IMG/VR virus record: IMGVR_UViG_3300032038_000015
Coordinates: 1-64,000 of that record
Source: a virus
Taxonomy: Duplodnaviria > Caudoviricetes
Length of the DNA: 64,000 nt
Direction: 5' to 3' (one strand)
Part shown: positions 1 through 37,309 of the stretch, piece after piece
How positions within the stretch are numbered: the stretch's first letter is position 1
Layout of the letters: each line of letters starts with the position of its first letter
Translations under genes and position numbers: made by a program
Notes under the pieces: generated by a model
Told to the model about the DNA's origin: nothing
The model's database searches: none
What the model saw: the letters and a program-made list of their open reading frames with translations, nothing else

Positions 1-445
1 TTTCTGTTGGAAGTTTTTTAGTTAAATTGTTTCCAGACGGAATTCCTTTATATGTTACATCTTTAAAAAATCCATCTTTAATTTCAGTTCCCTTCACTCT
101 ACTCATATAATCCCAAAAACTACTTATAATATGTTTCCTAGTTTCTAATGTTGTAGGCGACATTCCATTCTGTTCTTTAGTTTTTAGATATAATGTAATA
201 TCTTCTGCCATAATATCGGTAAAATCCGATGGCTCAATATCTGAAACATTTGTTTTATCAATAAGTTTCTCTTCAATAAACCAATTGAGCAAATCTACAA
301 TGACTCCAAGATAATTCAACGCACCTGCCTTACTCTCTATTTTAACAGTGAAATATTTTCTCATATATATAGGAAGATTTAACTCATCCAACTTCCTATT
401 AAGTTTTTCAGCATTTTTGTTTTGTACTTCTATTTTGTAACACAT
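1..445 (-). CDS. Tyrosine recombinase (XerC/XerS-like), N-terminal part; runs off window
   Basis: Own translation MCYKIEVQNKNAEKLNRKL...AEDITLYLKTKEQNGMSPTTLETRKHIISSFWDYM matches the core-binding (SAM-like) domain pattern; catalytic residues lie outside the window. Confidence 0.65.
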   Translation of the reverse strand, partial: MCYKIEVQNKNAEKLNRKLDELNLPIYMRKYFTVKIESKAGALNYLGVIVDLLNWFIEEKLIDKTNVSDIEPSDFTDIMAEDITLYLKTKEQNGMSPTTLETRKHIISSFWDYMSRVKGTEIKDGFFKDVTYKGIPSGNNLTKKLPTE

Positions 446-450
446 AGCAA

Positions 451-720
451 TCACTCCTTTGTGTAATCTGCTATCGCTTTTGCAATAGCTTTAGAAGCTC
501 TTTTACTTTTTAATGATCTCTGAATAGATTCAGTATTCCAAAACACATCGCTAAGTCCAGCTAACTCACCACCGCAATTCCAATTCGGAATACTAAAGAA
601 TCCTCCATTTACATATTCTCCGAAAATCACACTATAATAATTTCCATTGTATTCAACACCTATGTGGTGAATATTTTCAACATAAGTATCACCATTATAA
701 CTGATTTTATAATTTTCCAT
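451..720 (-). CDS. Hypothetical protein
   Basis: ORF, RBS gaaagg before ATG 720. Confidence 0.7.
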   Translation of the reverse strand: MENYKISYNGDTYVENIHHIGVEYNGNYYSVIFGEYVNGGFFSIPNWNCGGELAGLSDVFWNTESIQRSLKSKRASKAIAKAIADYTKE

Positions 721-736
721 GTTATGTTCCACCTTT

Positions 737-1012
737 CTACATATTATTCTCTACTTTATCTGTATAATAACGTGGTCTAATTCGTTGAGCATAATCCAAC
801 GTTTCCAAATAATCATCACACCATCGAATTTCTATATTCTTTGTAATTTCTCCGTTACAACCTTCGTTAAAACATGTTAAGTCTTTGATATGTTTTTTCT
901 TACGTTGGTTTCCATTTCTTTGAATTCCACTTCCTAACTGGTTGATTTTCATGCAATGAAGACATAAAAATCTTGATGCTCTTTTTGGATTTCCCATATT
1001 CATATTCATCAC
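737..1012 (-). CDS. Hypothetical Cys/His-rich (zinc-binding) protein
   Basis: CLHC...HIKDLTC...C, RBS gaggtg. Confidence 0.7.
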   Translation of the reverse strand: MMNMNMGNPKRASRFLCLHCMKINQLGSGIQRNGNQRKKKHIKDLTCFNEGCNGEITKNIEIRWCDDYLETLDYAQRIRPRYYTDKVENNM

Positions 1013-1230
1013 CTCGTTTTTTCAATAAAAAAGAAGCAGTTTATTCTGCTTCTACTTTTATTTACTCCAAATATTTATATTTTCCAGTTTCAACCAACTT
1101 ATTTATAAGTATTTCAAGGAAATTAACACAGGATTCATATGTCTTTCCTTCGAAAATAACTTCGTCAATAGCCGTATTTTTTACATACCAATCTATCTTG
1201 TTATCCTTTTGAAAGCAATTTTTCTTTGCT

Positions 1231-1749
1231 TTATAAATTTTCTATCATCTTTTTGATTCGTTCAATCTCTTCATTTGTATGTGGTGTGCCACCTGCATTC
1301 ATATCAACATACCACTGAAGAATTTCTCTTTTAGTCTTCAGACTATTTCGATATACATTAACATGGTATTCAGGTAATGGATTATAAGTAGCAATATATC
1401 TTGTAAAACTGAACTCATCAAAAAATTGTCCAAATGCTTTTAACTTATTATGTACAAAATTTTGAAGAGCCGTAGTTCTTTGCAACCCATCGACACAAAC
1501 ATAGTCATTTGTATCAGGATTCCAGTTAAAATAAAAATCTCTTCCAGATTTTCCACCTTTTAAAATAAACTCAACATATTTACTTTGCTGAATCTCTGTC
1601 CAAACATGTCCTCTCTGAAAACCAGGGTTCATATTTAGATTATATTCTTTTATTTCATTCTCAATAAAATCAACATAAGAAACAAAACCGAAACATGTTG
1701 GATTTACTAATTCATATTCTGTAAATTTCGGAACTTCATTCCATTTCAT
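1231..1749 (-). CDS. Stand-alone DUF262 (ParB/Srx-like, GmrS-type) domain protein
   Basis: PGFQRGHVWT and VDGLQRTTAL motifs; RBS ggaggtgg before ATG 1749. Confidence 0.8.
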   Translation of the reverse strand: MKWNEVPKFTEYELVNPTCFGFVSYVDFIENEIKEYNLNMNPGFQRGHVWTEIQQSKYVEFILKGGKSGRDFYFNWNPDTNDYVCVDGLQRTTALQNFVHNKLKAFGQFFDEFSFTRYIATYNPLPEYHVNVYRNSLKTKREILQWYVDMNAGGTPHTNEEIERIKKMIENL

Positions 1750-1780
1750 ATTACCACCTCCTTTTGTCCGAATAAAATCG

Positions 1781-1954
1781 TCAATTCTTGTTATATTTTT
1801 CTGCACATCCTTTACAGTAGAATTGATCCTCGCTTCCATCGTAAAATCAATCGTCATAACTACCTTTTACGCATTTTATGTTACCTGTCTTTTCTTGCTG
1901 TTCTGTTAGAATAAATTTCCCACATTTACAGCACATAATATCCCATTGCTCCAT
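1781..1954 (-). pseudogene. Small zinc-finger protein with internal TGA
   Basis: MEQWDIMCCKCGK...YDD*FYDG...CKGC; stop at 1847-1849. Confidence 0.55.
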
Positions 1955-2134
1955 TTATATCACCTCTTCCAATCTTCCGAGCAAATCATTCTTTACTTCG
2001 ATTATGGCATTTAACCTGCCTTTAATCTGTAAATCATATGGACTATCAGTATTTTTTAATAAATCCTCAAGTCTGTCAATTTCTGTATCAAGCTCACTAA
2101 TATATTCTCTTATCTTTTCTCTCATATCTGGCAT
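1955..2134 (-). CDS. Hypothetical coiled-coil protein (59 aa)
   Basis: MPDMREKIREYISELD..., RBS aggag. Confidence 0.65.
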   Translation of the reverse strand: MPDMREKIREYISELDTEIDRLEDLLKNTDSPYDLQIKGRLNAIIEVKNDLLGRLEEVI

Positions 2135-2146
2135 ACAAATATCTCC

Positions 2147-2332
2147 TTATAAAATCTTCTTTGCCTTTTCTTTCAACTCTTTTATTGTAGTAGCGTCAAA
2201 TTCCATTCCATTATCAAGTGTGACAAAATAATGTTGAACGCTTCGATTTTTCTCATAATCAAAATCGGCATCAACATCTACTCTCACGACTCTATCTCGA
2301 ATTCTTTTAGGTAAATAATCTTTTATTTCCAT
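2147..2332 (-). CDS. Hypothetical protein
   Basis: ORF with RBS, co-oriented. Confidence 0.65.
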   Translation of the reverse strand: MEIKDYLPKRIRDRVVRVDVDADFDYEKNRSVQHYFVTLDNGMEFDATTIKELKEKAKKIL

Positions 2333-2381
2333 AATATCACTCACTTTCTATTTGCCAAGGAAAGTTAAATTTCTTTGCCTT

Positions 2382-2657
2382 TTACTCACGAAAATTTTTA
2401 GCCCATAAGATACTTCCATCATTATTGCAAGTTAATTCAATCCCATATTTTGTTTTAAACCATATGTCAAGCCATTCAAGGAAGTCTTTTGTAACATTAA
2501 TAATGTAGCTACTAACACAATTCATATTTGGCAATGCAACCTGCATTTGTGGAATACGTGAATATTCTGTTGCCCCCTCATATTCATATCTGAATGGGCA
2601 ACCCTTAACCGCTAATTCGTTATTCAATTCCATTACCATTTCTCTTGTTATCTTCAT
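2382..2657 (-). CDS. Hypothetical protein
   Basis: RBS ggaggt before ATG 2657. Confidence 0.7.
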   Translation of the reverse strand: MKITREMVMELNNELAVKGCPFRYEYEGATEYSRIPQMQVALPNMNCVSSYIINVTKDFLEWLDIWFKTKYGIELTCNNDGSILWAKNFRE

Positions 2658-2690
2658 ACTATTACCTCCATTCTTAACCACATAGTAAAC

Positions 2691-2879
2691 TTAGATTTCA
2701 ATATCCGTTTTACCTGTCAGATAATCACCAAATTCTTTATCTGACATATTATCAATAATTTCAATTTTCTTCTCAACATTTGGTTTACATTTTTTATGAA
2801 TTTTATCTCCATCAAGTCCAAACCACTCAAACTCTTCATTGTCTTTAACTTCTTTTTCACATACAAAACATTTATACAT
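2691..2879 (-). CDS. Hypothetical zinc-finger protein
   Basis: CFVC...HKKC, RBS aaggag. Confidence 0.65.
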   Translation of the reverse strand: MYKCFVCEKEVKDNEEFEWFGLDGDKIHKKCKPNVEKKIEIIDNMSDKEFGDYLTGKTDIEI

Positions 2880-3082
2880 TTTTATTATTCTCCTTTCCAT
2901 TCCACAAGAAAACTTGGATTCATTGGAAATTATTTTCCATTTGCTACCATAGGTAACTGGCTATGAACCTCAACCTCTATCCAATCTCTTTCGATTTTGG
3001 ATTACCTTTATATTATACACTACTTTATTTGAACTGGAAAGTATAAGACAGTTTCCATCACATATACAGCGTGGAAGTTATC

Positions 3083-3301
3083 TGACACTCCAACGGCTAA
3101 AGCACGTTGGGTTCTTATATACATTCACTTCCAAATATACTCGAAAGCATATAAGACTAATGAATTTCTATAAGACTTTCACTACCAAAGATACCATTGT
3201 ATCCATTAACGATAGCATAAGGCTCGTGTCAAAACCTATTTATATATTTCTCCACTTAAATTGCTATACTACTAAAGGAGTGGGCTTTCCGCACGTGTCT
3301 T
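3083..3301 (-). mobile_element. Non-autonomous IS200/IS605 derivative (ends plus TnpB reRNA remnant, no ORF)
   Basis: On - strand: TTAC target, left end gcggaaagcccactcctttag, right-end hairpin cccaacgtgctttagccgttggag ending gtgtca. Confidence 0.65.
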
Positions 3302-3306
3302 GTAAT

Positions 3307-4017
3307 TTAATTCTCTTCGTAAATCCAATTCTGAATGAATCTCATTGCATCTTCAAAGTAAATAGGATTCAGATCCTTGTATGAACTGCCACATCCAAAT
3401 TTACTCTTCAATCCATTCCAAAGATTTATAAAATAACTTTTTGAATTTGCCTTATACTCTTTTGAATGAGCACCTCCAAGCAAATGATTGATTCTATCTT
3501 TCGCTGCTTTATAAATTCTCTGCTGCTGTCTTGTTGTAAGAGTCATATTATCTACTACCTGATTCAGTTTCTCTGTCTGCTCACCTAACATATTTTCCAT
3601 ATTGTTAATCTGAGCATATACAATTTTCATATCACATCCCATATCTTCAAGCATTGTTTCTACCTTATTAGATTGAGTTGCAACATAACCACCTGTCTTT
3701 CGGATTGATGGAAGAACCTCTGATGTTACCCAAATTCTAAATGGCTTCGCAATTGGCTTTCTACTTCTAAGTACAAGTGTATAAAATCCGCTTTCGCTTA
3801 TGATATTTGCCTCTCCCTGACGACCTAAGTTAAACTTAGCCCGTTCAAAATCCTCCAATCCATCCATTGCCATTGTTGGATTTGTCGTTCCAAGAATATC
3901 GCAAACATCTTTTGCTACAAACCAAGGGTTTCCATCAATCACAATAGTTCTAATCTGTCCGAAATTTTCATTGTTAAAAATTTCAATTTCATTTCTTGTT
4001 TTTAATACATCTTTCAT
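3307..4017 (-). CDS. Phage antirepressor, BRO-N plus ORF6C domains
   Basis: FGQIRTIVIDGNPWFVAKDVCDILG...ISESGFYTLVLRSRKPIAKPFRIWVTSEVLPSIRKTG; C-terminal YKDL...AMRFIQNW. Confidence 0.9.
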   Translation of the reverse strand: MKDVLKTRNEIEIFNNENFGQIRTIVIDGNPWFVAKDVCDILGTTNPTMAMDGLEDFERAKFNLGRQGEANIISESGFYTLVLRSRKPIAKPFRIWVTSEVLPSIRKTGGYVATQSNKVETMLEDMGCDMKIVYAQINNMENMLGEQTEKLNQVVDNMTLTTRQQQRIYKAAKDRINHLLGGAHSKEYKANSKSYFINLWNGLKSKFGCGSSYKDLNPIYFEDAMRFIQNWIYEEN

Positions 4018-4185
4018 ATTGTATCTTCCTTTCTTATATAAATTTGTTGATAGTCTTTTATAGTTTTATTCTCTATTTGCTCGCAGACTATCGAGAGTAT
4101 TCCAACTCCATCACGACAGCTTTTACAGATAGCCAATCTGCTATTCAGTTTTCAAGGTACGCAATTCTTGTTTGGAAAATGTGAC

Positions 4186-4291
4186 TTGAATAAGTCCAGA
4201 AAATACGATATAATATGTAATGACTAGGACTTCGGTTCAAGTTGTGATTGAGTGTAGCGAAACTTTCTCAGGGTGTACGCTGCACTCTTTT
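4186..4291 (+). ncRNA. Putative antisense sRNA in antirepressor leader
   Basis: TTGAAT-17-TATAAT (4186-4214), then hairpin gagtgtagcg...cgctgcactc plus T-run. Confidence 0.45.
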
Positions 4292-4460
4292 ATTTTCCAT
4301 TATTATCAGACCACATCATTCCAAGAACAAATTTATCCTCGATATAACCTTTCATAAATCGCTCAAGTACAACACTTACTGGCAATTTATCTTCTTTGCA
4401 TTTGTCTTTGAATTTCTGTAGGATCTCTGAATCAATGGAAGTGTTAAATTTTGTTCTCAA
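4290..4460 (-). CDS. Ribbon-helix-helix DNA-binding protein (56 aa, TTG start)
   Basis: MRTKFNTSIDSEILQKFKDKCKEDKLPVSVVLERFM; RBS aggaggtg. Confidence 0.7.
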   Translation of the reverse strand: MRTKFNTSIDSEILQKFKDKCKEDKLPVSVVLERFMKGYIEDKFVLGMMWSDNNGK

Positions 4461-4701
4461 TCAAATGCACCTCCTTTGATTTCCTATATCTTAGCACTTA
4501 TTATTGAATATGTCAACACTATTTCAACACTTTTTTGTAAAAAACAACCGCCAGTATTTTTTTTACTAGCGGTTTGTGTTTATCTATATACTATATATTG
4601 TGGTTTACATCTCATTCAACCACAATATATTGATTAAAATTTCCAATGAAACTATTATTTCTTAATTCTCTTCTTCCACATCTGTTCTATCATTTATCTT
4701 A

Positions 4702-5040
4702 TCATTTTTCAATTATAACAAAATCCACACAGGTTTTATAGACATCGTAATCAACTGCTCTAAAGTTACAGAGATGTCCGTTCTTCTCTACATCAAAAAT
4801 AATCCATTTACAGTCACTTGCATCTTCCCAAGGCTCAAATTTAACAAATTTTCTAGCGAAATCATTCGCTTTCATCCCATAATCTTTTCCGTCTAATAAT
4901 AAAGACGGAATTCTATCAAATTCTTCCTGTGTCATATAATAATATGTGTTATAAAACCCTAAATCTTCTGAACAACTTTGTCCAAAACTATTTCTATAAT
5001 AACTTATTGCTTTACATTTCTCTTTTTTCATATCAATCAA
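4702..5040 (-). CDS. Hypothetical protein
   Basis: ORF with RBS. Confidence 0.65.
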   Translation of the reverse strand: MIDMKKEKCKAISYYRNSFGQSCSEDLGFYNTYYYMTQEEFDRIPSLLLDGKDYGMKANDFARKFVKFEPWEDASDCKWIIFDVEKNGHLCNFRAVDYDVYKTCVDFVIIEK

Positions 5041-5157
5041 CCCTTTCTATTTTACTCCATTATACCAATTTCCAATCACAAAAGCCACTGAAAAATAGTG
5101 AACTACCCACGAGCTAAAGCTCGTTTATTCTTCTTCGTCTTGTATTATTCATATAAA

Positions 5158-5784
5158 TCACCTATTCCTTCCCCATAAGTCATCTAATACTTTCTGATCA
5201 CTTGGTAGATTCGAATAACTAATTCCAATAGTCTGCAACTTATAATATTCTTCTTTTGTAATGTCGATTCCATAATCGCCTTTAACAGTTTCTCTATAAC
5301 CGAATTTATCCTGGCATTCAGGTCTGAAGTACCATTTCTTATAAATTGGTTTATCTCCATGTTCCCATGCAAAAAGACAAGTAATTGTTCTACCAGTAGC
5401 AATTTCCGTTGTAACTTGTCTACCAAAATAAGGATTGTACTGCATATAAGCTAATTTGCCTCTTTCAATTGCATCTTGCTTTTCATGTTCACTCATCGCA
5501 AATAACTGTTGTGTACCTCTACCATAAGAAGTGTTATACACTTTACTGCTATTCACACCAACAGTAGAATATAACTTAACTCCGTTTCTATCGGTTGTCT
5601 CAACTCTTTTTACTCGCTCGCCATTGATATAATCATTACATAATCTGTCCATGTAATGAACGTTTCCATCTTTATCAACTGTACGAGTAATTTTCTTCAT
5701 ATCATAGTTATCTTTAGCTGCCTTTGCAGCACTTGCTCCATAAATACCTAAGAACGCTAACAGTCCACCGAACATATTCATCAA
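5158..5784 (-). CDS. Membrane-anchored hypothetical protein
   Basis: N-terminal hydrophobic segment FGGLLAFLGIYGASAA. Confidence 0.75.
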   Translation of the reverse strand: MMNMFGGLLAFLGIYGASAAKAAKDNYDMKKITRTVDKDGNVHYMDRLCNDYINGERVKRVETTDRNGVKLYSTVGVNSSKVYNTSYGRGTQQLFAMSEHEKQDAIERGKLAYMQYNPYFGRQVTTEIATGRTITCLFAWEHGDKPIYKKWYFRPECQDKFGYRETVKGDYGIDITKEEYYKLQTIGISYSNLPSDQKVLDDLWGRNR

Positions 5785-5802
5785 CCTCTTTTCTCTTTTA
5801 TA

Positions 5803-5955
5803 TTATTTTCTCCACTTTTCCATTTCATCAACTGATTTCTTATTTAAGTTGTTATACATATCTTGTCGCTTGCGTGATTCTTCCTTTTGGTTTGCTTTCC
5901 AAGGAAGATAAATACATAAATACATTGCTACTAAAAATCCGATTAACTGCGCCAT
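5803..5955 (-). CDS. Small single-TM membrane protein (50 aa)
   Basis: MAQLIGFLVAMYLCIYLPWK..., RBS ggaggt. Confidence 0.65.
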   Translation of the reverse strand: MAQLIGFLVAMYLCIYLPWKANQKEESRKRQDMYNNLNKKSVDEMEKWRK

Positions 5956-6026
5956 AATGATTACCTCCGTTTTTCTTTAATTATATCATGTGTTGCGTCC
6001 TATTAAAAGGACAGAAAATTTCCGTT

Positions 6027-6257
6027 TCATCCTAAAATCAAATATAACATGGTTTGTCTTACAAAATATTCTAACTGTGGTGTATTTGTAAATAATTTAA
6101 GTAATTCTGGATTTGCTAAATCAGTCATACATTTTTCTACAACTTTATCATAGATTTTTCTATTAGTGTCATTTCTATAAATACTTAAATCATGCAGATG
6201 TAAAATAAATTCTGTATAATCTCTCACCTTTGTTTCTGCCGTTTTTAATGTGTACAT
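6027..6257 (-). CDS. Hypothetical protein
   Basis: ORF, RBS gaggt. Confidence 0.7.
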   Translation of the reverse strand: MYTLKTAETKVRDYTEFILHLHDLSIYRNDTNRKIYDKVVEKCMTDLANPELLKLFTNTPQLEYFVRQTMLYLILG

Positions 6258-6274
6258 AATATCAACCTCACTTT

Positions 6275-6472
6275 CTATTCAAATAATTTATCAGCTACAT
6301 AATTTACTTCTTCGTAAATATCTTCTATTAATGCATCTTCATTAATAGTATCAATATTATCTTCACACCACATTCTGAAATCTGTATATCTGTTTGTCTT
6401 ACAGTATTCTAAGTAACTTCCCAACAAGCCATATACCTTTTCTTGCGTTTCATTCATATTATCAATCTCCAA
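6275..6472 (-). CDS. Hypothetical acidic protein
   Basis: ORF, co-oriented. Confidence 0.65.
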   Translation of the reverse strand: MEIDNMNETQEKVYGLLGSYLEYCKTNRYTDFRMWCEDNIDTINEDALIEDIYEEVNYVADKLFE

Positions 6473-6481
6473 TCTTCCGAT

Positions 6482-6763
6482 TCATTGTTCTAATTTTCTT
6501 ACAGTAAAATAAATTGCTGCACAATATTTGTCTCCATCTACGAACAGATTATTTATTTCAACACCCAACTCTCTGCCAACACAATCCATAATATCATCCT
6601 CATTATATTCAACATCAAACGCTGGACTATATAAGAATACTTCTTTTGTATCTTCTTCCATATTAAATATAAGACTTGAATCATCCTTTTGTTCCTTCAT
6701 AAATTCCAATAAACAATCAGATGTTGTTGTAAAGCATTTTCTCTCAAAAAACCTTGAATCCAT
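6482..6763 (-). CDS. Hypothetical acidic protein
   Basis: RBS aaggagg before MDSRFF. Confidence 0.7.
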   Translation of the reverse strand: MDSRFFERKCFTTTSDCLLEFMKEQKDDSSLIFNMEEDTKEVFLYSPAFDVEYNEDDIMDCVGRELGVEINNLFVDGDKYCAAIYFTVRKLEQ

Positions 6764-6815
6764 AGCTGTTCCTCCTTTCATAATCCAAGTAAATCATCGT
6801 TTTATTGGTTGTAAA

Positions 6816-7295
6816 TCAACCGCCATTTTCAACTGATTTGTATTCCACCACTAAATCTTCATCAGTTACAACATGAAGATATTTTGCATATAGTTCACAC
6901 AAAGTTTCTTCTGTCAGATTCTTTTCCTTATCTGACATATTCTTCAACTGCCAAGGATAAATTGGTGGGTAAATCAAATATGCTGCACCATCAAAATCAG
7001 TACATACATATAATTCAATTCCTTCCACCTCTTTAATGACTTCATACATAATTTCTGCAAGTCCACCATAATTATTTTCGCAACACTCTTCCACATAAGA
7101 TTCTAAAATATCATATGTTTCCGTTATCTGTCCATCACAATAAGTATCTATATATTCTTTAACTCTCTCATACAGATTTGGTGCTAACTGAATCAATTTC
7201 ATCAACTTAACCAAGTTGATTTCTTCTTTTAAATCATCTGTACAAATTCCATATCCATAATCATGCCATGTGTTATAACTCATATCATTCACCAT
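6816..7295 (-). CDS. Hypothetical acidic protein
   Basis: ORF, ~155 aa. Confidence 0.75.
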   Translation of the reverse strand: MVNDMSYNTWHDYGYGICTDDLKEEINLVKLMKLIQLAPNLYERVKEYIDTYCDGQITETYDILESYVEECCENNYGGLAEIMYEVIKEVEGIELYVCTDFDGAAYLIYPPIYPWQLKNMSDKEKNLTEETLCELYAKYLHVVTDEDLVVEYKSVENGG

Positions 7296-7411
7296 TTCCT
7301 TTCTAATTCTGCCAAATATGCTAACAAATTATCTTCAGTTCCGTCTGCAATCTCATAATCCTGCCACCAATCATGTATTGTTTCCCTGAGTATTGTAAAT
7401 CATCGATTCAT

Positions 7412-7812
7412 TCTACTATCGTTCCATACGGTTTAGCCGCGTCTCTTATAGTCTCAATAGACTTATACGGAACACCTCTCAATATAAGACCACCGCTATA
7501 TCTTCGGTTTTCTCATACGGATGCCTCCTTTCTAAAATCCATATCGTTCCACGGACACTAACGGAGTGTCCGCATCGGTGATAAGCCTATGATATGGCGT
7601 AAAACAATCTCCTTAGACTGGGTATGGTCTTGGCAGTGTTACAAGCTAGGAGTTCTCTGTAAAAGAGATACCTGTAAGTGCCATGTGTCTCAAATAAAAA
7701 GTATTAGGCGACCATATCCATATGTCTCTGCTCAACTAAACTCAGAAAATATATATTTCTATTTCTGAGTTGCTTTTACAAGCCCACTCCCTTTAGGGGG
7801 TGGGTAGTTGAC
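7412..7812 (-). mobile_element. Non-autonomous IsrB/IscB-type element: omegaRNA with deleted nuclease ORF, interrupting a small gene (7289-7828)
   Basis: - strand gtcaactacccacccccta aagggagtgggcttgtaaaagc...ttagttgagcagagac...; RBS plus MRKPKI*; ATGA at right flank. Confidence 0.7.
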
Positions 7813-7839
7813 ACACTGGCATCTCCATATATATTCTCC

Positions 7840-8286
7840 TTAAATTCCTACTTTTAAATGTATAGCGTTAGTTTCCCATTCTTCGACTAAGCAATTGACA
7901 ATATCTTCTGGAATATCTACATTTGCAAATCTTCCATCGTTTACCCAATCATAAGTTGCACTCCATCTGTCACTATGCAGCCATTTGCTTTTACCTATCC
8001 ATTTATAAAACTGGTCTCTTTGGAACTTGCACCACTCATAAAACATTCCTGTTTTTTCAATAAAGTCATTCGCTTTGTTTACCATTTCCATATCAGCTAC
8101 AGGAAACCATCTCTTTTCAATTTCTGGGTAATCTCCATTCCAACCATCCCATTTTGAATAGATGATGTCTCCATTCCCATCGTGGACTTCACAATCTAAT
8201 TTTAGTGCTTCTCTTACTGCATCTTTTAAATTGTCAATATTGTCTGCTTTTTTATTTCCATACCAATCATAACATGTATATTTCAT
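7840..8286 (-). CDS. Hypothetical protein
   Basis: ORF 148 aa. Confidence 0.75.
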   Translation of the reverse strand: MKYTCYDWYGNKKADNIDNLKDAVREALKLDCEVHDGNGDIIYSKWDGWNGDYPEIEKRWFPVADMEMVNKANDFIEKTGMFYEWCKFQRDQFYKWIGKSKWLHSDRWSATYDWVNDGRFANVDIPEDIVNCLVEEWETNAIHLKVGI

Positions 8287-8331
8287 TTATGTCACCATCC
8301 TTATTCTTTTTATTCTGAAAGAAACTTTTTT

Positions 8332-8463
8332 TTACTCTTCTTTTTCTTCCACATCATAAGTACAATCAATTCCGTTACTATCAAGCCCTGCACTAACTGC
8401 TCTTTCTACATCTTCTACTGATGAATTATCATATACTTCAATAGTTACTATAATTGTTTTCAT
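8332..8463 (-). CDS. Small acidic protein (43 aa)
   Basis: MKTIIVTIEVYDNSSVEDVERAV..., RBS ggagtg. Confidence 0.55.
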   Translation of the reverse strand: MKTIIVTIEVYDNSSVEDVERAVSAGLDSNGIDCTYDVEEKEE

Positions 8464-8469
8464 ATAACA

Positions 8470-8799
8470 TCACTCCATTTCTTGTATATATCTTTCCAAA
8501 GTCGCTCTTGCTGCTTTAAAATACTGGTCAATATTTCCATGAATACTATACCAATTTCCATGATTTCCACCGTTTGTATCATATTCCATTATTAGTTTTT
8601 CTCCTATGTAGGAATCGGGAATAGGAACAAAATCTTCAAAACACGTTTCTTTTAAATATGCATTTGCAATTTCATAATTCTCTTTTGTTTTCAAATCCAA
8701 AATATACGATGTTTCTGTATCAAGACCAATTTCATCGCTTAACGCATATGTCGGAATTGACTTACAAATTTCATCAAATTTCTCTTCTAATGTTTTCAT
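8470..8799 (-). CDS. Hypothetical protein
   Basis: ORF, RBS aggag. Confidence 0.7.
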   Translation of the reverse strand: MKTLEEKFDEICKSIPTYALSDEIGLDTETSYILDLKTKENYEIANAYLKETCFEDFVPIPDSYIGEKLIMEYDTNGGNHGNWYSIHGNIDQYFKAARATLERYIQEME

Positions 8800-8812
8800 A
8801 TCTCATCACTCC

Positions 8813-9157
8813 TTAATTAAAATCAACCATGACAACTTTATGTTCTCTCAATGCATCACAATACCACATGCTACTATCATCACTTGTATATTCTTCCTGT
8901 AAGAATTTCAACACTTCATCGTCTGTTCTGAAATCTTCAGTTCGCTTTATCAAATCGAACAACCAATCCTTTTCGACTACAACAATTACTTCATCAAAGT
9001 CGCTTTCTTCCTCTTCATCTGTATCTGCGTTATATCCAAAGTAACCATCACAAACACAAAATGAAATTAAATCTCTATGCTTTTCGTAGTCTTGATATTT
9101 CGCTTCTGATACTTCCTTTAAAATTCTTTCTCTTACTTTATTCATAAAATCAACCAT
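8813..9157 (-). CDS. Hypothetical acidic protein
   Basis: ORF, D/E-rich. Confidence 0.7.
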   Translation of the reverse strand: MVDFMNKVRERILKEVSEAKYQDYEKHRDLISFCVCDGYFGYNADTDEEEESDFDEVIVVVEKDWLFDLIKRTEDFRTDDEVLKFLQEEYTSDDSSMWYCDALREHKVVMVDFN

Positions 9158-9308
9158 CCTTTCCGTTTGAAATTGCTATTTCTTACTAACAACATTCCAT
9201 ATTTCCATACCAAAACCATCGCACACCATCATAGCTTGCATATATATCATTATCTTTACTCTTAAAATATATTGGATAATCATTGTTTTTCATTTCCATC
9301 ACTCCAAT

Positions 9309-9497
9309 CTACTTAAATAATGTATGCTTTCCATCTGCATCACGTTTCCATTCGTAACCTACAAATTCAAGGGCTCTCAAAGCTCCATTGTAATAACTCA
9401 TATCTTGTGGTCTTGCATCTTCCATATTTGCAATCATCCACCGTTCATCTAGCCATTCTTCCGTCTGCTGCTTAATTACTTTTGGTGTTCTCTTCAT
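9309..9497 (-). CDS. Hypothetical protein
   Basis: ORF, RBS ggagtg. Confidence 0.7.
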   Translation of the reverse strand: MKRTPKVIKQQTEEWLDERWMIANMEDARPQDMSYYNGALRALEFVGYEWKRDADGKHTLFK

Positions 9498-9513
9498 TTT
9501 CCATCACTCCAAT

Positions 9514-9816
9514 CTATGCTTCATAATCAAATTCGCTTAATCCTGTATCAGTTACATATGCCTGTACAGCTTCAACATATGTTCCTTCAAAGTTTCCATT
9601 CTCTGTATTATAACTGCTTGACTCTTCTTCAGTTTCACAATCATAATGTAAGAAAATATTCGTGATCAAGTTTTCCATTGATGTTTTTGGCTCGTATTTC
9701 TGCTCTCTAATCCACACTGCCATATAATCGTAATCACACCATTTTTCTTTTGGGTATTTACTATAATCTTTTTCTTCCGTCCATTCACCTGTCCACTGAT
9801 CTACCATATTATTCAC
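9514..9816 (-). CDS. Hypothetical acidic protein
   Basis: ORF. Confidence 0.7.
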   Translation of the reverse strand: MNNMVDQWTGEWTEEKDYSKYPKEKWCDYDYMAVWIREQKYEPKTSMENLITNIFLHYDCETEEESSSYNTENGNFEGTYVEAVQAYVTDTGLSEFDYEA

Positions 9817-10117
9817 TCCAATCTTCTAATAACTCATACACTTCGTCTTTATTGTCATACATGTACTGATTAAACGCTTCGTAATCTCCATCTTTATCAG
9901 GAAATTTTTCAATAAATCTTTCCCACATTGCATCTGACACCACATTTTCATTGAATAATTTTCCATTGTATTCAAGTTCTGCATCTGCCCATTCTCCGTG
10001 TGAAATATACCCAATATCTTCAATTCCGCAATAGTTTGGATATTCTTTCATCGGGAAGCTTGCTACACCATTTTTTACTACAAAATCTCTTTCTATTGTG
10101 CTTGTCATTTTAATCAC
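9809..10117 (-). CDS. Hypothetical acidic protein
   Basis: ORF. Confidence 0.7.
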   Translation of the reverse strand: MIKMTSTIERDFVVKNGVASFPMKEYPNYCGIEDIGYISHGEWADAELEYNGKLFNENVVSDAMWERFIEKFPDKDGDYEAFNQYMYDNKDEVYELLEDWSE

Positions 10118-10338
10118 TCTCCCTTTAATGTAAGTAATGATTTAACAAATTCTTCCGCCTCTTCTTTTGTATCAAATTTCCAACCACCAAAATGTGAGCC
10201 AATAGGACTCATTGTATATCCTTCAATATGCCATTTGTCATTTACAAAACTTGGCTCTGTTATCTTTATCCGTTCAATCCTATTAATATTGATGAACTCA
10301 TCATAATCTGTTCTTATAAAAGCGTCTCTTGTCATCAT
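10114..10338 (-). CDS. Hypothetical protein
   Basis: ORF. Confidence 0.65.
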   Translation of the reverse strand: MMTRDAFIRTDYDEFININRIERIKITEPSFVNDKWHIEGYTMSPIGSHFGGWKFDTKEEAEEFVKSLLTLKGE

Positions 10339-10343
10339 AATTC

Positions 10344-10547
10344 CTACACCTCCATTTCAATTCCAAATTCATCGTATAAAAGTTTCTCAAATTCAGGATC
10401 TCTCTTTAAATATTCTCTTAAAAATAAATCAGGCTCGCATGGTGCAAGTCTGAAATGTAAATCTTCTCTTATGTCATCATTCATATAAGTTGCAATTGTG
10501 TCCATAAGCTCCTGTGTAATATTAAATTTCCGTCCATATCTCAGCAT
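10344..10547 (-). CDS. Possible AcrIC5-like anti-CRISPR protein
   Basis: YMNDDIREDLHFRLAPCEPDLFLREY resembles the recalled AcrIC5-family motif MDxxIREELH..LAPC...EF...Y. Confidence 0.5.
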   Translation of the reverse strand: MLRYGRKFNITQELMDTIATYMNDDIREDLHFRLAPCEPDLFLREYLKRDPEFEKLLYDEFGIEMEV

Positions 10548-10592
10548 AATTATTTACCTCACTTTCTAAATAAACAGTTCTTTCTTTTGGTT

Positions 10593-10898
10593 TTATACTG
10601 TTGGTTTAGCTTTTCTTACGAAACCAATTTCCTGACACATATAATTTAACCAACTTGTATTATGATCAGCCAGTTTCTTTGTTTTCCTATATACTCCATT
10701 TTTATCTGCTTGTTTATTTTCAATACATCTTATCAATGTTTTATAATCATCAATAGGCACAATTTCCGCTGTAATTTTTGTGAAGCGATTAGTTGCTTTA
10801 TAAACATTGTTTCCTAAAGACTCAATCTTACATAAAACCTCATTTTCGTCTGTATCTGTTCTAGTCCAAATATTATTTTCTATTTTATCTATTATCAT
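10593..10898 (-). CDS. Hypothetical protein
   Basis: ORF. Confidence 0.7.
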   Translation of the reverse strand: MIIDKIENNIWTRTDTDENEVLCKIESLGNNVYKATNRFTKITAEIVPIDDYKTLIRCIENKQADKNGVYRKTKKLADHNTSWLNYMCQEIGFVRKAKPTV

Positions 10899-10910
10899 AA
10901 TTGCTACCCC

Positions 10911-11405
10911 CTATCCAAAAATCGGTTCTCTTATAACGCTAATACTTCTACATCTTTTCAAATCTACAATGCTTGTAACAGTTTTTCGTTTTGCTTTACT
11001 TTCTCCATATGGATTAAATTCACCCTCAGTTACTTCATATCCAGTCTCCAATATACAATTTTTACTCTGAATATATCTTTTCCATTCCTTATAACATCTT
11101 AATGCGTCATATAAATCATCTGGATCATATCTAAGCTGCTGTGTATAATAAAACTCGTTTGAGTCTTTCTTAAAGAAACAAATACATTTTCCTACAACTC
11201 GTGGTTTCTTTTCTTCTGCTCGTAATGCTCGTTTTAATTCAATCAACAACTTTTCGTTCTCTCCGCATACTGCCAAATATGCCAAGCGACTTCTTACTTC
11301 TTCAGGAAAATTTATATGTTTTCCATTTATGGAGAATCCCACTGATTCAGGTGCATATTTATATCCACACCAATGAAAATTTTCATGCTTTCTCATTTCA
11401 ATCAA
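10911..11405 (-). CDS. Hypothetical protein
   Basis: ORF. Confidence 0.7.
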   Translation of the reverse strand: MIEMRKHENFHWCGYKYAPESVGFSINGKHINFPEEVRSRLAYLAVCGENEKLLIELKRALRAEEKKPRVVGKCICFFKKDSNEFYYTQQLRYDPDDLYDALRCYKEWKRYIQSKNCILETGYEVTEGEFNPYGESKAKRKTVTSIVDLKRCRSISVIREPIFG

Positions 11406-11655
11406 CCTCCCATCTATAACCTGTTTCTTTACTATTTGTAATTTTTGCTACTTCATATTTACAAGTCATTCCTTTATAAGAATGTTTTTCAATCCATTCA
11501 TTTGCTTTCTTTTTAGTATCGAATACCAAGATATTTCCTTCGTCCATATAACCAAATTTTGTTGTACCTTTTGACGCAACCATATTCCGTAATATACCGT
11601 CAATTTCTATGATTCCATAATATTCTTTATATGTTTTTGCTTCTGCTAGTCGCAT
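11398..11655 (-). CDS. Hypothetical protein
   Basis: ORF, RBS aaggag. Confidence 0.7.
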   Translation of the reverse strand: MRLAEAKTYKEYYGIIEIDGILRNMVASKGTTKFGYMDEGNILVFDTKKKANEWIEKHSYKGMTCKYEVAKITNSKETGYRWEVD

Positions 11656-11722
11656 TTCACATTCTCCTTCCTAATAAATAAGACAGACACATTTGTTTGC
11701 GTCTGCCTTATTATTCTCTGTT

Positions 11723-12211
11723 TTACCACCATTCCTCGTCTTCTTCATCATCATCAGATTCCCAACCTTGATTCGGATCGCTTAACGATGGTTCCACATC
11801 TTCGTATTCCATTTCTCTTGTAGTAATTTTAATTGGGTACTCAAGAGCTGCGTTATCTTCATCGTAACAAGCCATTACAATTCCAAGCCAACGAAGTTCG
11901 CAATCAATTTCTTTCCCATCATAATATGCCTGTAAGTTTGTAACATCATTTTCACTTGTACTACATTTCCAATTTCCATCCTTAATTCTACGAATGATTT
12001 CAGGAATCATTTCCTTGTTCCATTCTGGAATTAAATCATAAATATCATAATCATATCTGCCAAATCTTCCATATCCATCATAACAACTTTCGTAAATTGC
12101 CTTTCCGTATTTCTTTTGAAATGGTTTCGGTACAAGCAAATATGTATCTGCTCTTTTATTATCAATTACTTGTTTGTTTGTATCGCTGTAAATCCAACTG
12201 AACTGTCCCAT
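11723..12211 (-). CDS. Hypothetical protein (MGQFSW...YDGYG motif, acidic tail)
   Basis: ORF with RBS. Confidence 0.75.
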   Translation of the reverse strand: MGQFSWIYSDTNKQVIDNKRADTYLLVPKPFQKKYGKAIYESCYDGYGRFGRYDYDIYDLIPEWNKEMIPEIIRRIKDGNWKCSTSENDVTNLQAYYDGKEIDCELRWLGIVMACYDEDNAALEYPIKITTREMEYEDVEPSLSDPNQGWESDDDEEDEEWW

Positions 12212-12265
12212 ATTATCACCTTTTACCTTTCTAAATTTTCACTATAAATTACAATTTCCTTTGCT

Positions 12266-12802
12266 TTAATTCCATGCGTCATCGCCACAATTTAACTTCA
12301 CATCAGTGAGTACATAGTCCCAACTTGTACCATAATGTGTTACGCCCCATAAATACATATCAAGTGCTTCATTATAATACAGTGGATCATCTGTATATTC
12401 CTTAATAATATCAGCTCCGTTTTCATCCACAATGTACCACTGAAATACTTCTGGTGGATAATCTTGCTGATTCTGCAATTCGTCAATTCGTGACTGCATT
12501 TCATCGATTTCGCTTTCAAGCACCTTGTAATCATTAGACTTTTCATCAAGTTCTTCCATTTTCTCTTCTGTGTCAGAGATTTTATTTTCAAGTTCTTCGA
12601 TTTCATCAGAGTTATCAATCATTCCGTTTTCCTGATTCCAATATCCAATTCCATTTGAATCTGTGATACTCATAATGTCATTGTTTAATACTGCATCAAA
12701 TGCCTTTGCAAGTGTCCTATAATCAAGATAACCCTGTTCCTTTGCGTAATCACTTACTTCGTTTCCATAAAAATATGTTCCTGCTAATTTTCTTCTACTC
12801 AT
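12266..12802 (-). CDS. Highly acidic protein with coiled-coil insert
   Basis: ORF, RBS aggagg; C-terminal WGVTHYGTSWDYV. Confidence 0.75.
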   Translation of the reverse strand: MSRRKLAGTYFYGNEVSDYAKEQGYLDYRTLAKAFDAVLNNDIMSITDSNGIGYWNQENGMIDNSDEIEELENKISDTEEKMEELDEKSNDYKVLESEIDEMQSRIDELQNQQDYPPEVFQWYIVDENGADIIKEYTDDPLYYNEALDMYLWGVTHYGTSWDYVLTDVKLNCGDDAWN

Positions 12803-12916
12803 AATTCGTTTCCTCCTTGTAATAAAATAGGCAGCTAGGTATTTATTCTCCTAACTGCCTTTGCGGTTGCGTTATTTTTGTTTAGTTGCTAAACCAAGAA
12901 ATCTTAGTTTACTTTA

Positions 12917-13132
12917 CTATCTAAATGTTCCTATTTTGCAAAGTTCACTTGTATCGACTTTTTCGATTTCTTCATAAAGCTTTTCTAATTCACCTGCTAA
13001 TTCGTTTTTGCCTATTGCTTTCAATCCATGCATTAAATAATATGGATAATTACCTAAATCAAATCTTGTTTTTATATTTGCCTTATGGTCACGCATAGCA
13101 GATACCATTTTATCTAACTCCTGTGGTGTCAT
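12917..13132 (-). CDS. Hypothetical protein
   Basis: ORF, RBS ggagg. Confidence 0.7.
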   Translation of the reverse strand: MTPQELDKMVSAMRDHKANIKTRFDLGNYPYYLMHGLKAIGKNELAGELEKLYEEIEKVDTSELCKIGTFR

Positions 13133-13169
13133 TTAATCGCCTCCATTTCCCTAGTAAATGCGAATTTCT

Positions 13170-13421
13170 TTACTCTGTATCACACAACATGTATCCCATA
13201 CCTGCTAATATATCTGGTGCATTATCATAATTGATTTCCTCAAAATCTTCTTCCATCCATGATAAAGTTCCCTTGCAGTCGCATTCAGGACAAGTATCTT
13301 CTCCATGATTTATCAGTATTACCCTTCCACAATTATTACATGCTACAAAATCACAACATTCACTTTTATTTTCGCTTGTAACTCTGTCTAATACAATGTT
13401 TTTATCCATTTTATTCACCAT
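13170..13421 (-). CDS. Zinc-ribbon protein
   Basis: CNNC...CPEC. Confidence 0.7.
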   Translation of the reverse strand: MVNKMDKNIVLDRVTSENKSECCDFVACNNCGRVILINHGEDTCPECDCKGTLSWMEEDFEEINYDNAPDILAGMGYMLCDTE

Positions 13422-13590
13422 TTACCTTTCTTAAAATCCACATGAAATATCCATTTCTACTTGCATTTCCTCCACTCGCTCAAATATTACTTTACCGCTT
13501 CCAGTGCAATGTAATATTTTCTATTCTGTCTCCATGATACCAATCTTTAAATTTAATTTTTAAATACCAATATTTTTTCATTTAATCACC

Positions 13591-14055
13591 TCACAAAAAT
13601 TTATCAAAATAATTTTCATTTCCCATGTCATGCAACAATATAGGCTTTATACATTTTGCTTCATGGTTTGGTGTTCTTCTGTACGCTGAATAGTTATCCA
13701 TGAACAATACAAACCCACATCTAACACCTCTCATTTTTAACAGTGTCCCGTTTTCTGTAATATATAAGTTAATATTCTCTAGTCCTCTAAATGATGTGAA
13801 GCTATCATTTCTATTGATTGCACTACTAAGTAATTCTTTTTTATTTTCTGGCATATTTTCAAGTAAAATTTCTGCAACCTGTTGATATACACTTTCTGTT
13901 ATTCTAAAACCAAACTTTTCAAATGATTTTAGATAGTTTATGCAATCATTTATTTTATAGCTTTCAAATATTATTCTCTGTTTTCCAAATCTCTCTGTGT
14001 CTGCCTTTACAACATACGTATTATTCGTTGTTTTCTCAATTTTGATGTTTTTCAT
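13591..14055 (-). CDS. Hypothetical protein
   Basis: ORF, RBS aggaggg. Confidence 0.7.
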   Translation of the reverse strand: MKNIKIEKTTNNTYVVKADTERFGKQRIIFESYKINDCINYLKSFEKFGFRITESVYQQVAEILLENMPENKKELLSSAINRNDSFTSFRGLENINLYITENGTLLKMRGVRCGFVLFMDNYSAYRRTPNHEAKCIKPILLHDMGNENYFDKFL

Positions 14056-14818: not shown

Positions 14819-15109
14819 TTATATTCTCCTTTCTGTATTAAAAAAGCGATGCTAACTGTCTTGCTAACATCACTTTAGATAATCCACTTGTGCGGATTCC
14901 TAATTTCTTTTTCTGGCATATATATTATCAAAATTATTAGCAATTTGAAATAATTTTAATTCTTTCTTTAAAGCTTCATTATCTGTAAATGTAAACATTT
15001 GTTATCACTCTCCCTTCAAAGTTTTACACTTACAGTATAAATCTTTGTGCTTACATTGTCAAGTTTAGCAGCTAAACTAGATTTCAGTTTAGCCACTAAA
15101 CATTTGCCT

Positions 15110-16681: not shown

Positions 16682-16936
16682 AACGCAAAACCTCCTATTC
16701 TGAGAGAACCGCATCTATTGCGGTTACTCCGTACTTTATTTCTACAATGTGCATAGCATCCGCTTCAGACTGGCATTGTTTATATTGTTTTGTGGTTTAG
16801 TCGCTAAACAATTTTGATTATTGTTTTTTTTGTTTAGTCACTAAACTGTAAAACAATAAAAAAACGGGTAACAATACCCGAATGACATTACAAAAAGGGC
16901 GGAATTTCACCGCCCTGGTTTTTGTGTTAGTGCTAA

Positions 16937-17715: not shown

Positions 17716-17940
17716 ATTATAAAGGCTTATACTTTATATGTCAAGTATTATTTTTATCTTTTTTGGAGTGCCCAAACACTGTTTATCTCACACAAGATAT
17801 TTTATTCACTTGACTTGATACAAGTATAACAGATATTCTTTTACTTGTCAAGTGTTATTTTCTAATTTCTTAAAATTCTTAAAAAATTATTTATTCTCTT
17901 GACTTGTTTAAAGTATATCATGTTATTAGTTTAAAGTCAA
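17716..17940 (-). promoter_or_regulatory. Three tandem sigma-A early promoters
   Basis: TTGACA-17-TATAAT (17744-17716), TTGACA-17-TATACT (17851-17823), TTGACT-17-TATACT (17940-17912), each with an A/T-rich UP element. Confidence 0.85.
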
Positions 17941-24345: not shown

Positions 24346-24489
24346 AAGTTACAAAATAGAAATTTCATTTGGAGAATATATAAGTGGAGGTAAATTTATA
24401 TGAGCGAATACAACAAAGAAGAATTAGAGTCAATGGCTGACTTAATTACAGATTACATTTATTTGATTAAGGCGGTGATGTTATAATAA

Positions 24490-27339: not shown

Positions 27340-27957
27340 AACAATAAACATTTCACTATGGTTACAATCAACTCAGTGTAGATTGGTTAATCACCATGCT
27401 GAGAATACGTGGATACTGCCAGAAACAATCATTGGGATACTTATGATTGGTTTGGTCTTATATGCTGTGAAGCTTATAAGATAAAAGGGAAACCCTAAAA
27501 TGTAAGCGTATGTACTGAGAATATATGTAGTAAAAGGCTATGTCTTGTCGCTGACGCAATAGAGAGTTGCACTGCAACGCATAATCCCGATGCCTATAAC
27601 TTGGTAACTTATAGGAGTTAAGTAAGGAAATACCACAATAAGTCAGTTTGCTGTGAGTATTCAGAAATGAGTACAATAAGACAAGTTCAATGAGCGAGTA
27701 GTCCAAGGCAATGAAAGTATAGTATAATGCAAGTAAGTAAATATAAAAATACTTAAACGATTTTCTGAATGATGGATGAAAGTTAGGAGTAATCAATCTC
27801 CTATACACATGATGAGACTAATGTAGACTCGTGGGATAAAAAGTTTATAGATGACGGTCTGTAAGCTCAGATTTATCTCTGTATTGGCTGAATATTATTG
27901 CGTATATTTGAGGCAACCCGAAGGGGTGTTTGTGGTCATAGTGAAGTGTTTATTGTT
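27340..27957 (+). ncRNA. Large structured ncRNA, ROOL-like
   Basis: 28-bp terminal helix (27340-27367 with 27930-27957, G-U wobbles only) enclosing many hairpins; directly upstream of a tRNA. Confidence 0.75.
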
Positions 27958-27961: not shown

Positions 27962-28038
27962 TGGGAATTAGCTCAGTTTGGTTAGAGCGATGGTCTTATA
28001 AACCATGTCTGTCACAAGTTCAAATCTTGTAATCCCGA
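27962..28038 (+). tRNA. tRNA-Ile(UAU)
   Basis: D arm gctc/gagc, anticodon arm atggt-ctTATaa-accat, T arm acaag-ttcaaat-cttgt; one acceptor mismatch, no CCA. Confidence 0.8.
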
Positions 28039-28069
28039 CTACTCTTCCACTGTTGCGTGGAAAATATAA

Positions 28070-28345
28070 TTCAACTACCCACTGCCTTTTAGGCGGTGGG
28101 ATTGTATAGTAGCAATGCTACGGAGCAATCCCAAGTTGAATAGCCTAAGTTCTTCGAGAACTACGTTACCTTGGAATATATAGGTACTTCGGAACGTAAT
28201 ACCTAATTCCGAACACTACGAACTACAATTAAACAGTTCTGTGAGGTAAGAGCAGTGTTGTAGTCATACAAAACCCAAGGATAACATTGGCTAAGGTATG
28301 CAAACCGCTTTTCGGAGCGAGTAATTAAAACCTTTACGGTTTTGG
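28070..28345 (+). ncRNA. IscB omegaRNA (HEARO-like)
   Basis: tcaactaccc...gttgaatagcctaag...ctacgttacc...aacattggctaagg upstream of iscB. Confidence 0.8.
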
Positions 28346-36277: not shown

Positions 36278-37309
36278 GTGATTGTATTGGACGGAAAGAT
36301 AGCAAATAGAACTGATGAGATTACGGAAGATGAATGGTTGGAAATAAATAAAACTAATAGAGATATGGTTCAAGACTATCTCGACAACCAATCCGATCTT
36401 TCTGTAAAAACTCGACCAGCGTATCGTTCGGGTTTGAGAATATTTTTCAAATATGTACATGATTATCTTGGGGACAAGGATTTTACACAGATTAAAAAGA
36501 AAGAATTTCAGAAATACCTGAATTGGCTAACGAATCGTGGCTTGTCAGATTCTGCTATTAAATTTAAAAAATCATGTGTAAGTGCATTTTGTAATTATGT
36601 AATGATGATGTATGAGGATGAGATGCCAACCTTCAGGAATTTCACCATCGGGTTAAAAGTGGTAAAAACTGGATATGTACATGAAAAAGTACCTCTTACG
36701 CCAGATGAATATGTTGCATTATGCGAAGAATTAGAAAGACGTGAAGAATGGCAAAAACTTGCATATGTTGTATTTTCTTATAGTACAGGATGTCGAAGAG
36801 CTGAAGCTAGACAGCTTCTTAAAGAAGTTGTTGATTATCCTGCCAAAGAAAAGAAAATTAAAATTCTCGATGAAGATGGCAAAGAGGTAGAAGCTATTTC
36901 AAGACAATATCAAACACATACCATAAGATGTAAGGGTGCTTCGATTCAAGGTAAACAAAGAAAGCTTAAATTTGGGGAAGATGCAATGCATTGGCTTAAA
37001 AAATGGATTGAAGTACGTGGAGATGATGATTGCCCTTATATGTTTGTTGTAAAAACTAAAGATGGTTCAAAGGTGCGACAGATTGGATATAGTGCATTCA
37101 ATGATTGGTGTATAAATGAATTTTCTGAAATTGTTGGTAGGCGTAGTACGCCACATAACTTCCGACGGAGTAGAGCGACCAATCTTGTATGTTATGACCA
37201 TCGTGCATTGGAAACAGCACAGAAACTTTTGGGACACGAATCTTCCGAAACCACTCAGATGTATGTGATTCGTGAAGACACTGAGGATGCCGATGAAGCT
37301 TTCGTCTAA
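36278..37309 (+). CDS. Tyrosine recombinase/integrase
   Basis: STGCRRAE, KG, HNFRR, LGH..SETTQMY catalytic set. Confidence 0.92.
   Translation: MIVLDGKIANRTDEITEDEWLEINKTNRDMVQDYLDNQSDLSVKTRPAYRSGLRIFFKYVHDYLGDKDFTQIKKKEFQKYLNWLTNRGLSDSAIKFKKSCVSAFCNYVMMMYEDEMPTFRNFTIGLKVVKTGYVHEKVPLTPDEYVALCEELERREEWQKLAYVVFSYSTGCRRAEARQLLKEVVDYPAKEKKIKILDEDGKEVEAISRQYQTHTIRCKGASIQGKQRKLKFGEDAMHWLKKWIEVRGDDDCPYMFVVKTKDGSKVRQIGYSAFNDWCINEFSEIVGRRSTPHNFRRSRATNLVCYDHRALETAQKLLGHESSETTQMYVIREDTEDADEAFV

Follow-up and report, generated by a model that had tools for sequence, protein, structure and literature searches.

What is the function of a short palindrome that recurs at the gene junctions of a phage genome, with a different centre each time? 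The question is raised by the window analysed here, the first 64 kb of the single 131,991 bp viral record IMGVR_UViG_3300032038_000015 (IMG/VR; CheckV completeness estimate 79%), which comes from a large SPbeta-like gut phage. Genes run leftward in 1–19 kb and 80–132 kb and rightward in between, and the leftward array at the start of the window consists of ~40 small genes, with strong σA promoters at 17.7–17.9 kb reading into it and with no Pfam family for 16 of the 20 array products scanned. The original prediction was that 15 palindromic sites with a 6 bp core delimit an integron- or pdif-like array of mobile cassettes, leading up to a Xer-like recombinase gene. We conclude with high confidence that the GAAA-N6-TTTC sites (N6 being six unspecified bases) are real and are crossover joints. 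They form a fixed, ordered scaffold of position-specific joints, and we further propose, with a probability of roughly one half, that genes are exchanged at these joints by a tyrosine recombinase that needs matched centres.

All 15 predicted copies are present in the sequence where they had been placed, but the loose form of the motif (DAAA-N6-WTTH) is not enriched in the window, with 279 matches vs 306 ± 24 in shuffled sequences. It is the strict core, GAAA-N6-TTTC, that is in excess (9 copies vs 3.4 ± 2.0, with 1 of 100 shuffles reaching 9), and a spacing peak for GAAA-Nn-TTTC was present only at n = 6, with 20 copies genome-wide (132 kb) compared with 4–11 at other spacings. Twelve of these 20 copies were intergenic, against 18% of bases, and on the coding strand of positions 1–14000 the same was true for 14/19 DAAA-N6-TTTM matches, against a base fraction of 24% (p = 6e-6). 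A position weight matrix iterated from the strict copies found 32 intergenic sites genome-wide, almost every one of which belongs to the early and replication modules that run leftward, and the six-base centres of these 32 sites are all distinct, without a single duplicate, as had been claimed for the smaller set. The sites are oriented with the genes, with the coding-strand consensus A-n-GAAA-t-N4-a-TTTC-n-T-n-n-G-G-A and a weaker extended symmetry (CCAAnGAAA...TTTCnTTGG). They lie at gene junctions, 0–12 nt past a stop codon and 20–36 nt ahead of the next start, in agreement with the original description, and head groups of overlapping genes, and some precede conserved replication genes; three sites (4648, 12898 and 1211) have no gene behind them, but a terminator or a fragment of a gene. 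Two inverted arms, GAAA and TTTC, at an exact N = 6 spacing correspond to the layout of core-type recombination sites, which have a crossover region of 6–8 bp, and the sites were rightly called dif-like.

We compared the array with 137 related loci of ~20 kb each, taken from IMG/VR contigs of 80–190 kb in two protein-seeded scans. The N = 6 peak was present in these loci (613 copies vs ~120 at other spacings), and more distant relatives, whose recombinase is 31% identical, showed it as well; in small unrelated phages sharing one gene, both the peak and the recombinase gene were absent. Mosaicism of the region is extreme, the only stably linked gene pair being 5803–5955 with 5158–5775, and dozens of loci contain exact copies of 14-mers from the window between flanks that are unrelated on both sides; GAAATAGCAATTTC, for instance, is found with at least 12 upstream and at least 6 downstream variants in combinatorial pairings. 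When all 12-mers were ranked by flank diversity, an unbiased approach, the site cores and the ribosome-binding regions came out on top. The ends of BLAST alignments were dropped as breakpoints, being imprecise and piling up at all gene borders.

The six-base centres that recur in relatives, here called addresses and designated by letters, follow a single map order, with 18 centres arranged as Q R P O C I A F K B G, an anchor gene, and L E M D N H J. Exceptions were rare, with 50 of 1871 pairwise address orders in the minority, and all addresses are direct repeats, in one orientation in every locus. Every predicted site within 1–13457 fits this order (Table 1). Five of them are diverged copies of family-wide sites (1774, 2908, 6015, 6790 and 8317, the last better placed at 8321–8334), and two further sites (2686–2699 and 1982–1995) had been missed. 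For the diverged sites F, G and H, the assignment is based on their neighbours in relatives, since homologues of gene 7840–8286 sit in slots that start with F, the canonical GAAACGGAAATTTC/A stands in two relatives (L070 and L129) ahead of the same sequence that lies downstream of site G, and H comes after homologues of gene 1847–1954. With few exceptions, homologues of the window genes keep the same slot between the same two sites in relatives, and gene replacement is, from the loci compared, allelic exchange and not the insertion of mobile cassettes. Junctions lacking the motif at 9498–9543 and 1955–1990 have conserved linkers of their own, common to many unrelated neighbour genes in relatives (for example GGATTAAGCGAATTTGATTATGAAGCATAG plus ATTGGAGTGATGGAAATG), and because of such a shared linker the last 9 residues are identical in different upstream proteins.

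The position of the crossover could be read from the outermost bases, which are polymorphic within one address (position 0 is G, T or A, and position 13 is C or A). The base at position 0 matched the upstream flank cluster in 456/466 cases and the downstream cluster in only 403/482, and the base at position 13 matched the downstream cluster in 467/482 cases and the upstream cluster in only 388/466. Each outermost base thus goes with the flank on its own side, which places crossovers inside the 12 bp AAA-N6-TTT, and this invariant core is also the limit of resolution; the breakpoints that were originally to be looked for in the 6 bp cores do lie at the sites, where gene content changes, with the crossover placed in the 12 bp but no finer. 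Variation at flank-located junctions was about equally low in the centre and in the arms (52 vs 36 changes per position). In these sites the arms are shared, each centre is unique to its site in the genome and conserved by map position, and the crossover falls within the site.

Two tyrosine recombinase genes had been proposed, and both are present. The first closes the array, where the contig end leaves only the first 151 amino acids (aa) without the catalytic domain, and its identification as a Xer-like tyrosine recombinase comes from a full-length homologue in a relative (L064:16028-17017, 329 aa; 92–93% DNA identity over the shared part). This homologue matches PF00589 Phage_integrase at 1e-29, contains all catalytic residues (R, K in GKG, HxxR, H and Y), aligns to XerA and XerH through GIRESEL, GKG, HMMRH, LGHSS and NNYAN, and has XerA, XerH and XerD as its best solved relatives. 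The Xer-like gene was located 5–8 kb downstream of the anchor gene in 51/80 loci. At the other end of the contig is a truncated DDE transposase gene (L001:19365-19991, genome 131365–131991), and the assembly was probably interrupted by an insertion sequence adjoining or within the Xer-like recombinase gene. Just past this gene, relatives carry a MazF/PemK-type toxin gene (L064:17600-17965), in a region outside the present record. The second recombinase is the one in common with SPbeta, having 33% identity to YomM (3e-53), and the Xer-like protein showed no similarity to SPbeta YopP.

The same architecture with a different arm sequence was found in SPbeta itself (NC_001884; L006, L176), which contains 34 TAAAA-N6-TTTTA sites vs 0–3 copies at other spacings. 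These palindromes are also located at gene junctions, right after stops and with unique centres throughout (e.g. at 86074, 86886, 95129 and 113664), and they are unannotated in NC_001884. Literature searches gave no published description of either the sites reported here or the TAAAA-N6-TTTTA sites of SPbeta.

We infer that one of the phage tyrosine recombinases, the Xer-like or the YomM-like enzyme, may carry out the exchange, and that it would depend on identical centres in both partners, like the reactions of Cre/lox and Xer/dif. Recombination between two co-infecting phages, or between a phage and a resident prophage, would then be confined to sites of the same address, and genes would be swapped slot by slot with the array neither deleted nor scrambled. 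As each centre is different, a tyrosine recombinase could not release a circle by joining neighbouring sites. More tentatively, we suggest that this could represent a natural form of recombinase-mediated cassette exchange in SPbeta-like phages, in which dozens of dif-like sites would allow co-resident genomes to recombine at like addresses and to swap slots that probably include counter-defence genes.

Several observations weigh against exchange by a dedicated recombinase. DNA shared in the population is ~99% identical, matched flanks included, so that conservation of the centres is by itself no proof of selection. Linkage is also broken at the junctions without the motif, where the conserved linkers are 30–48 bp, and the motif is therefore not the sole route of shuffling. 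The strongly conserved arm is only 4–5 bp, compared with a binding element of ~11 bp for the tyrosine recombinase at dif, and SPbeta, while having equivalent sites, has no counterpart of the Xer-like gene. A homologue of the Sak4-like protein YorG of SPbeta was not found by sequence search, but Pfam then identified an AAA_24 protein at 107176–108153, in a family that includes Sak4-type annealing proteins. Finally, the sole aberrant joint, at site J, falls outside the centre. The start-less fragment 1060–1205 had been described as beginning exactly at this site, and it is indeed the 3′ part of a longer gene of relatives, but the homology starts 4–5 bp outside the TTTC arm, and the truncation looks like an ordinary deletion.

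In the main rival explanation, which we consider less probable, the palindrome is bound by a regulatory dimer or by some other DNA-binding protein and at the same time provides a short homology patch for general recombination of the phage, in the manner of the promoter-early stem-loops (PeSLs) of T4-type phages, with no dedicated recombinase and with centres conserved by descent only. The reassortment at motif-less junctions with their longer linkers, together with the AAA_24 (Sak4-type) protein, keeps short-homology recombination a live rival, and orthologous spacers as young as ~99% identity implies need no selection. The core shared between exchanged segments is only 12–14 bp, and such a length of identity is below the usual need of general homologous recombination, which we count in favour of a recombinase; also speaking against short homology are the polymorphism of the flank-linked bases 0 and 13, right beside the core, and the six centre bases, which are no more variable than the arms. 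A regulator box would suit half-sites that are 10 bp apart centre to centre and stand ahead of the starts of overlapping gene groups and of conserved replication genes, but it fits poorly with the three sites that are not followed by a gene, and no promoter elements lie beside the sites. A σ70 promoter was rejected, as nothing was conserved from −60 to −3 and promoter-like matches were not in excess over shuffles, and neither a phage sigma factor nor a T7-type polymerase was found in the record, which is 79% complete and in which the PF00940 control matched nowhere. SPbeta YonO, a single-chain RNA polymerase, uses one late promoter (PMC5467207), unlike the present sites, which are mainly in the early and replication modules, and a YonO-type promoter was discarded accordingly. 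The repeated SPBRE box of SPbeta (AAATACAAAWAATATGTATA, ~10 near-identical copies at σA promoters) is similar in that it lies between genes of an SPbeta-like phage, directly ahead of ribosome-binding sites, and is bound by MrpR/SroF, a recombinase-fold repressor that acts as a monomer without catalytic tyrosine (PMC10516654; bioRxiv 10.1101/2025.11.27.690993). This analogy was also rejected, since the motif has no sequence likeness to SPBRE and the recombinases are unrelated to MrpR, with no similarity to YopR (MrpR) in BLASTP.

A role at the RNA level, with a small hairpin after the stops acting in processing, stabilisation or translational control of long early transcripts, appears very improbable. 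Sites that follow the gene orientation, directly behind stops and just ahead of ribosome-binding sites, in operons driven by the strong promoters at 17.7–17.9 kb, would be well placed for it. Against this, pairing of the extended arms is confined to a quarter of the 32 sites and shows no covariation, positions 4 and 9 show T..A or unpaired combinations and never a compensatory pair, the A-U-rich 4 bp stem would be unstable, Rfam gave no match, and the reassortment is left unexplained. Bovine-gut metatranscriptome contigs, which are assembled only and cannot show starts or ends, contained short pieces of relatives ending near junctions.

The cassette mobility of the original prediction, with circles being excised and inserted at any site as in integrons or pdif modules, has hardly any credibility left, although a recombinase gene does adjoin a series of short palindromes that separate units of 1–6 genes. 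The pdif sites of Acinetobacter plasmids occur in inverted pairs (XerC-XerD and XerD-XerC), are used by host XerC/XerD, and delimit modules that move between contexts. The present sites share with them the dif-like structure, the 6 bp centre, and the position next to small accessory modules that differ between related replicons, but they are all direct, each with its own centre, and their genes are slot-bound with few exceptions, which contradicts a pdif-module system and an integron alike. Moreover, conserved sites of 14–24 bp with unpaired extended arms do not resemble attC sites (~60–140 bp, folding as single strands), and there is no attI-like site.

The closest parallels to a scaffold of addressed joints, the reading that we prefer, are heterospecific lox and FRT sites, with which engineered Cre and Flp perform cassette exchange. 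These sites have common inverted arms and a spacer that must match between partners, and when two sites on one molecule differ in their spacers, the segment that they enclose is protected from deletion and can be replaced in an ordered way. The common arms and site-specific centres are found here too; lox and FRT are man-made, with 13 bp arms and 8 bp spacers, whereas the phage has at least 18 natural sites with 4–5 bp of strongly conserved arm and a putative dependence on a recombinase. Among single-recombinase Xer systems (XerS/difSL, XerH/difH and XerA/dif), the arms of difSL and difH end in GAAAA and start with TTTTC beside the central region (PMC5357621). The GAAA(A)...(T)TTTC arms, the recombinase nearest to XerA, XerH and XerD, and the linkage of its gene to the site are all comparable, but Xer systems resolve dimers at one site per chromosome with 10–11 bp arms, often under FtsK control, unlike the dozens of sites with differing centres in this phage. 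PeSLs, which consist of σ70 promoters and terminator hairpins (Arbiol et al. 2010, PMC2839356), resemble the present sites in being short, repeated and intergenic, in lying in a hyperplastic region where the genes are small, and in their link with modular shuffling between related phages. PeSL copies are alike, so that neighbouring copies recombine and mini-circles form, whereas here each copy has its own centre, and there is neither a conserved −35/−10 within 60 nt upstream nor a stable stem.

Table 1. Sites of the leftward array in map order and other features of the record. Sequences of sites Q to J are those of the coding strand; positions are those of the window unless marked as genome.
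Feature	Position	Strand	Sequence	Remarks
Site Q	13444..13457	-	GAAATGGATATTTC	Centre TGGATA recurs in relatives; head of the order
Site P	13155..13168	-	GAAATTCGCATTTA	1 nt past stop of gene 13170-13409
Site O	12898..12911	-	TAAACTAAGATTTC	
Site C	12245..12258	-	GAAATTGTAATTTA	24 distinct contexts in relatives
Site I	10571..10584	-	GAAAGAACTGTTTA	
Site A	9169..9182	-	GAAATAGCAATTTC	22 upstream and 17 downstream flank clusters, 47 combinations
Site F, probable	8321..8334	-	TAAAAAAAAGTTTC	Diverged; canonical GAAACAAGAGTTTC, two centre changes
Site B	6790..6803	-	AAAACGATGATTTA	Diverged; outer bases A and A
Site G	6014..6028	-	GAAACGGAAATTTTC	One extra T (N7)
Site L	4648..4661	-	GAAATAATAGTTTC	Followed by a terminator, not a gene
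Site E	2908..2921	-	GAATCCAAGTTTTC	One arm change (GAAT)
Site M	2686..2699	-	GAAATCTAAGTTTA	Stop of gene 2691-2879 inside centre
Site D	2360..2373	-	GAAATTTAACTTTC	
Site N	1982..1995	-	TAAAGAATGATTTG	Diverged; inside 3′ end of gene 1955-2134
Site H	1774..1787	-	GAATTGACGATTTT	Diverged, arms GAAT/TTTT; canonical GAAATGACGATTTC
Site J	1211..1224	-	GAAAAATTGCTTTC	Last site of the array
Start-less 3′ gene fragment	1060..1205	-		Full-length gene in relatives
Xer-like tyrosine recombinase, N-terminal 151 aa	2..454	-		Open reading frame cut by contig end
Motif copy	24353..24366	+	AAAATAGAAATTTC	Just upstream of YonO-like RNA polymerase gene
YomM orthologue, second tyrosine recombinase	36278..37309	+		
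Features outside the window (see text)	L003:13795-17157, L001:4813-5811, L001:77-919			Genome 85795-89157, 116813-117811, 112077-112919

The divergent region at 17716–17940 (- strand) contains three tandem near-consensus σA promoters (12/12, 11/12 and 10/12 matches), which probably serve the leftward array as early promoters. A second palindrome family, GTTTAG-N3/4-CTAAAC, is present in five copies (in the window at 16790–16870, 15060–15100 and 12865–12885, - strand), two of which abut a σA promoter (TTGACA-17-TATACT) at 15062–15034, and in sequence it looks like a classical repressor operator. The gene array also includes three long non-coding stretches (2880–3306, 4018–4289 and 7284–7839) that are hairpin-rich and without Rfam match; positions 7776–7812 were covered by one RNA-run contig at a depth of 186.

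The phage encodes a DnaE-type polymerase, a DnaB-like helicase, a RecD2-like helicase, an intein-containing NrdD and a DHH exonuclease. It also has a distant YonO homologue (869 aa, BLASTP 1e-7), followed by a ROOL RNA that stands first in the rightward block, and the order is that of a YonO-like single-chain RNA polymerase gene (24490–27099), ROOL RNA (27348–27946), tRNA-Ile(TAT) (27962–28039) and a HEARO RNA with an IscB-type RRXRR/HNH protein (28070–29599); a layout of yonO, a large RNA and the late operon is also found in SPbeta. Two RAGATH-18 RNA motifs are located in the rightward structural block (33123–33197 and 61432–61506). Outside the window, the record contains a LAGLIDADG intein in NrdD, a GIY-YIG/NUMOD homing endonuclease, a Thg1-like tRNA-His guanylyltransferase and two TnpB genes.

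It has long been argued whether the joints of phage mosaics are set at gene borders by conserved linkers, or by random illegitimate events followed by selection. In this array the joints are visible at base resolution, with a 12 bp core being common to dozens of otherwise unrelated gene neighbours, and a large family of phages from gut and rumen keeps the cores in a fixed order. If the proposed exchange is correct, it would provide a dedicated enzymatic cause of phage mosaicism, and if a recombinase is responsible, the sites would constitute a ready-made set of orthogonal natural recombination sites. Since SPbeta shares the architecture, dedicated, addressed recombination as the basis of mosaicism is directly testable in Bacillus subtilis.

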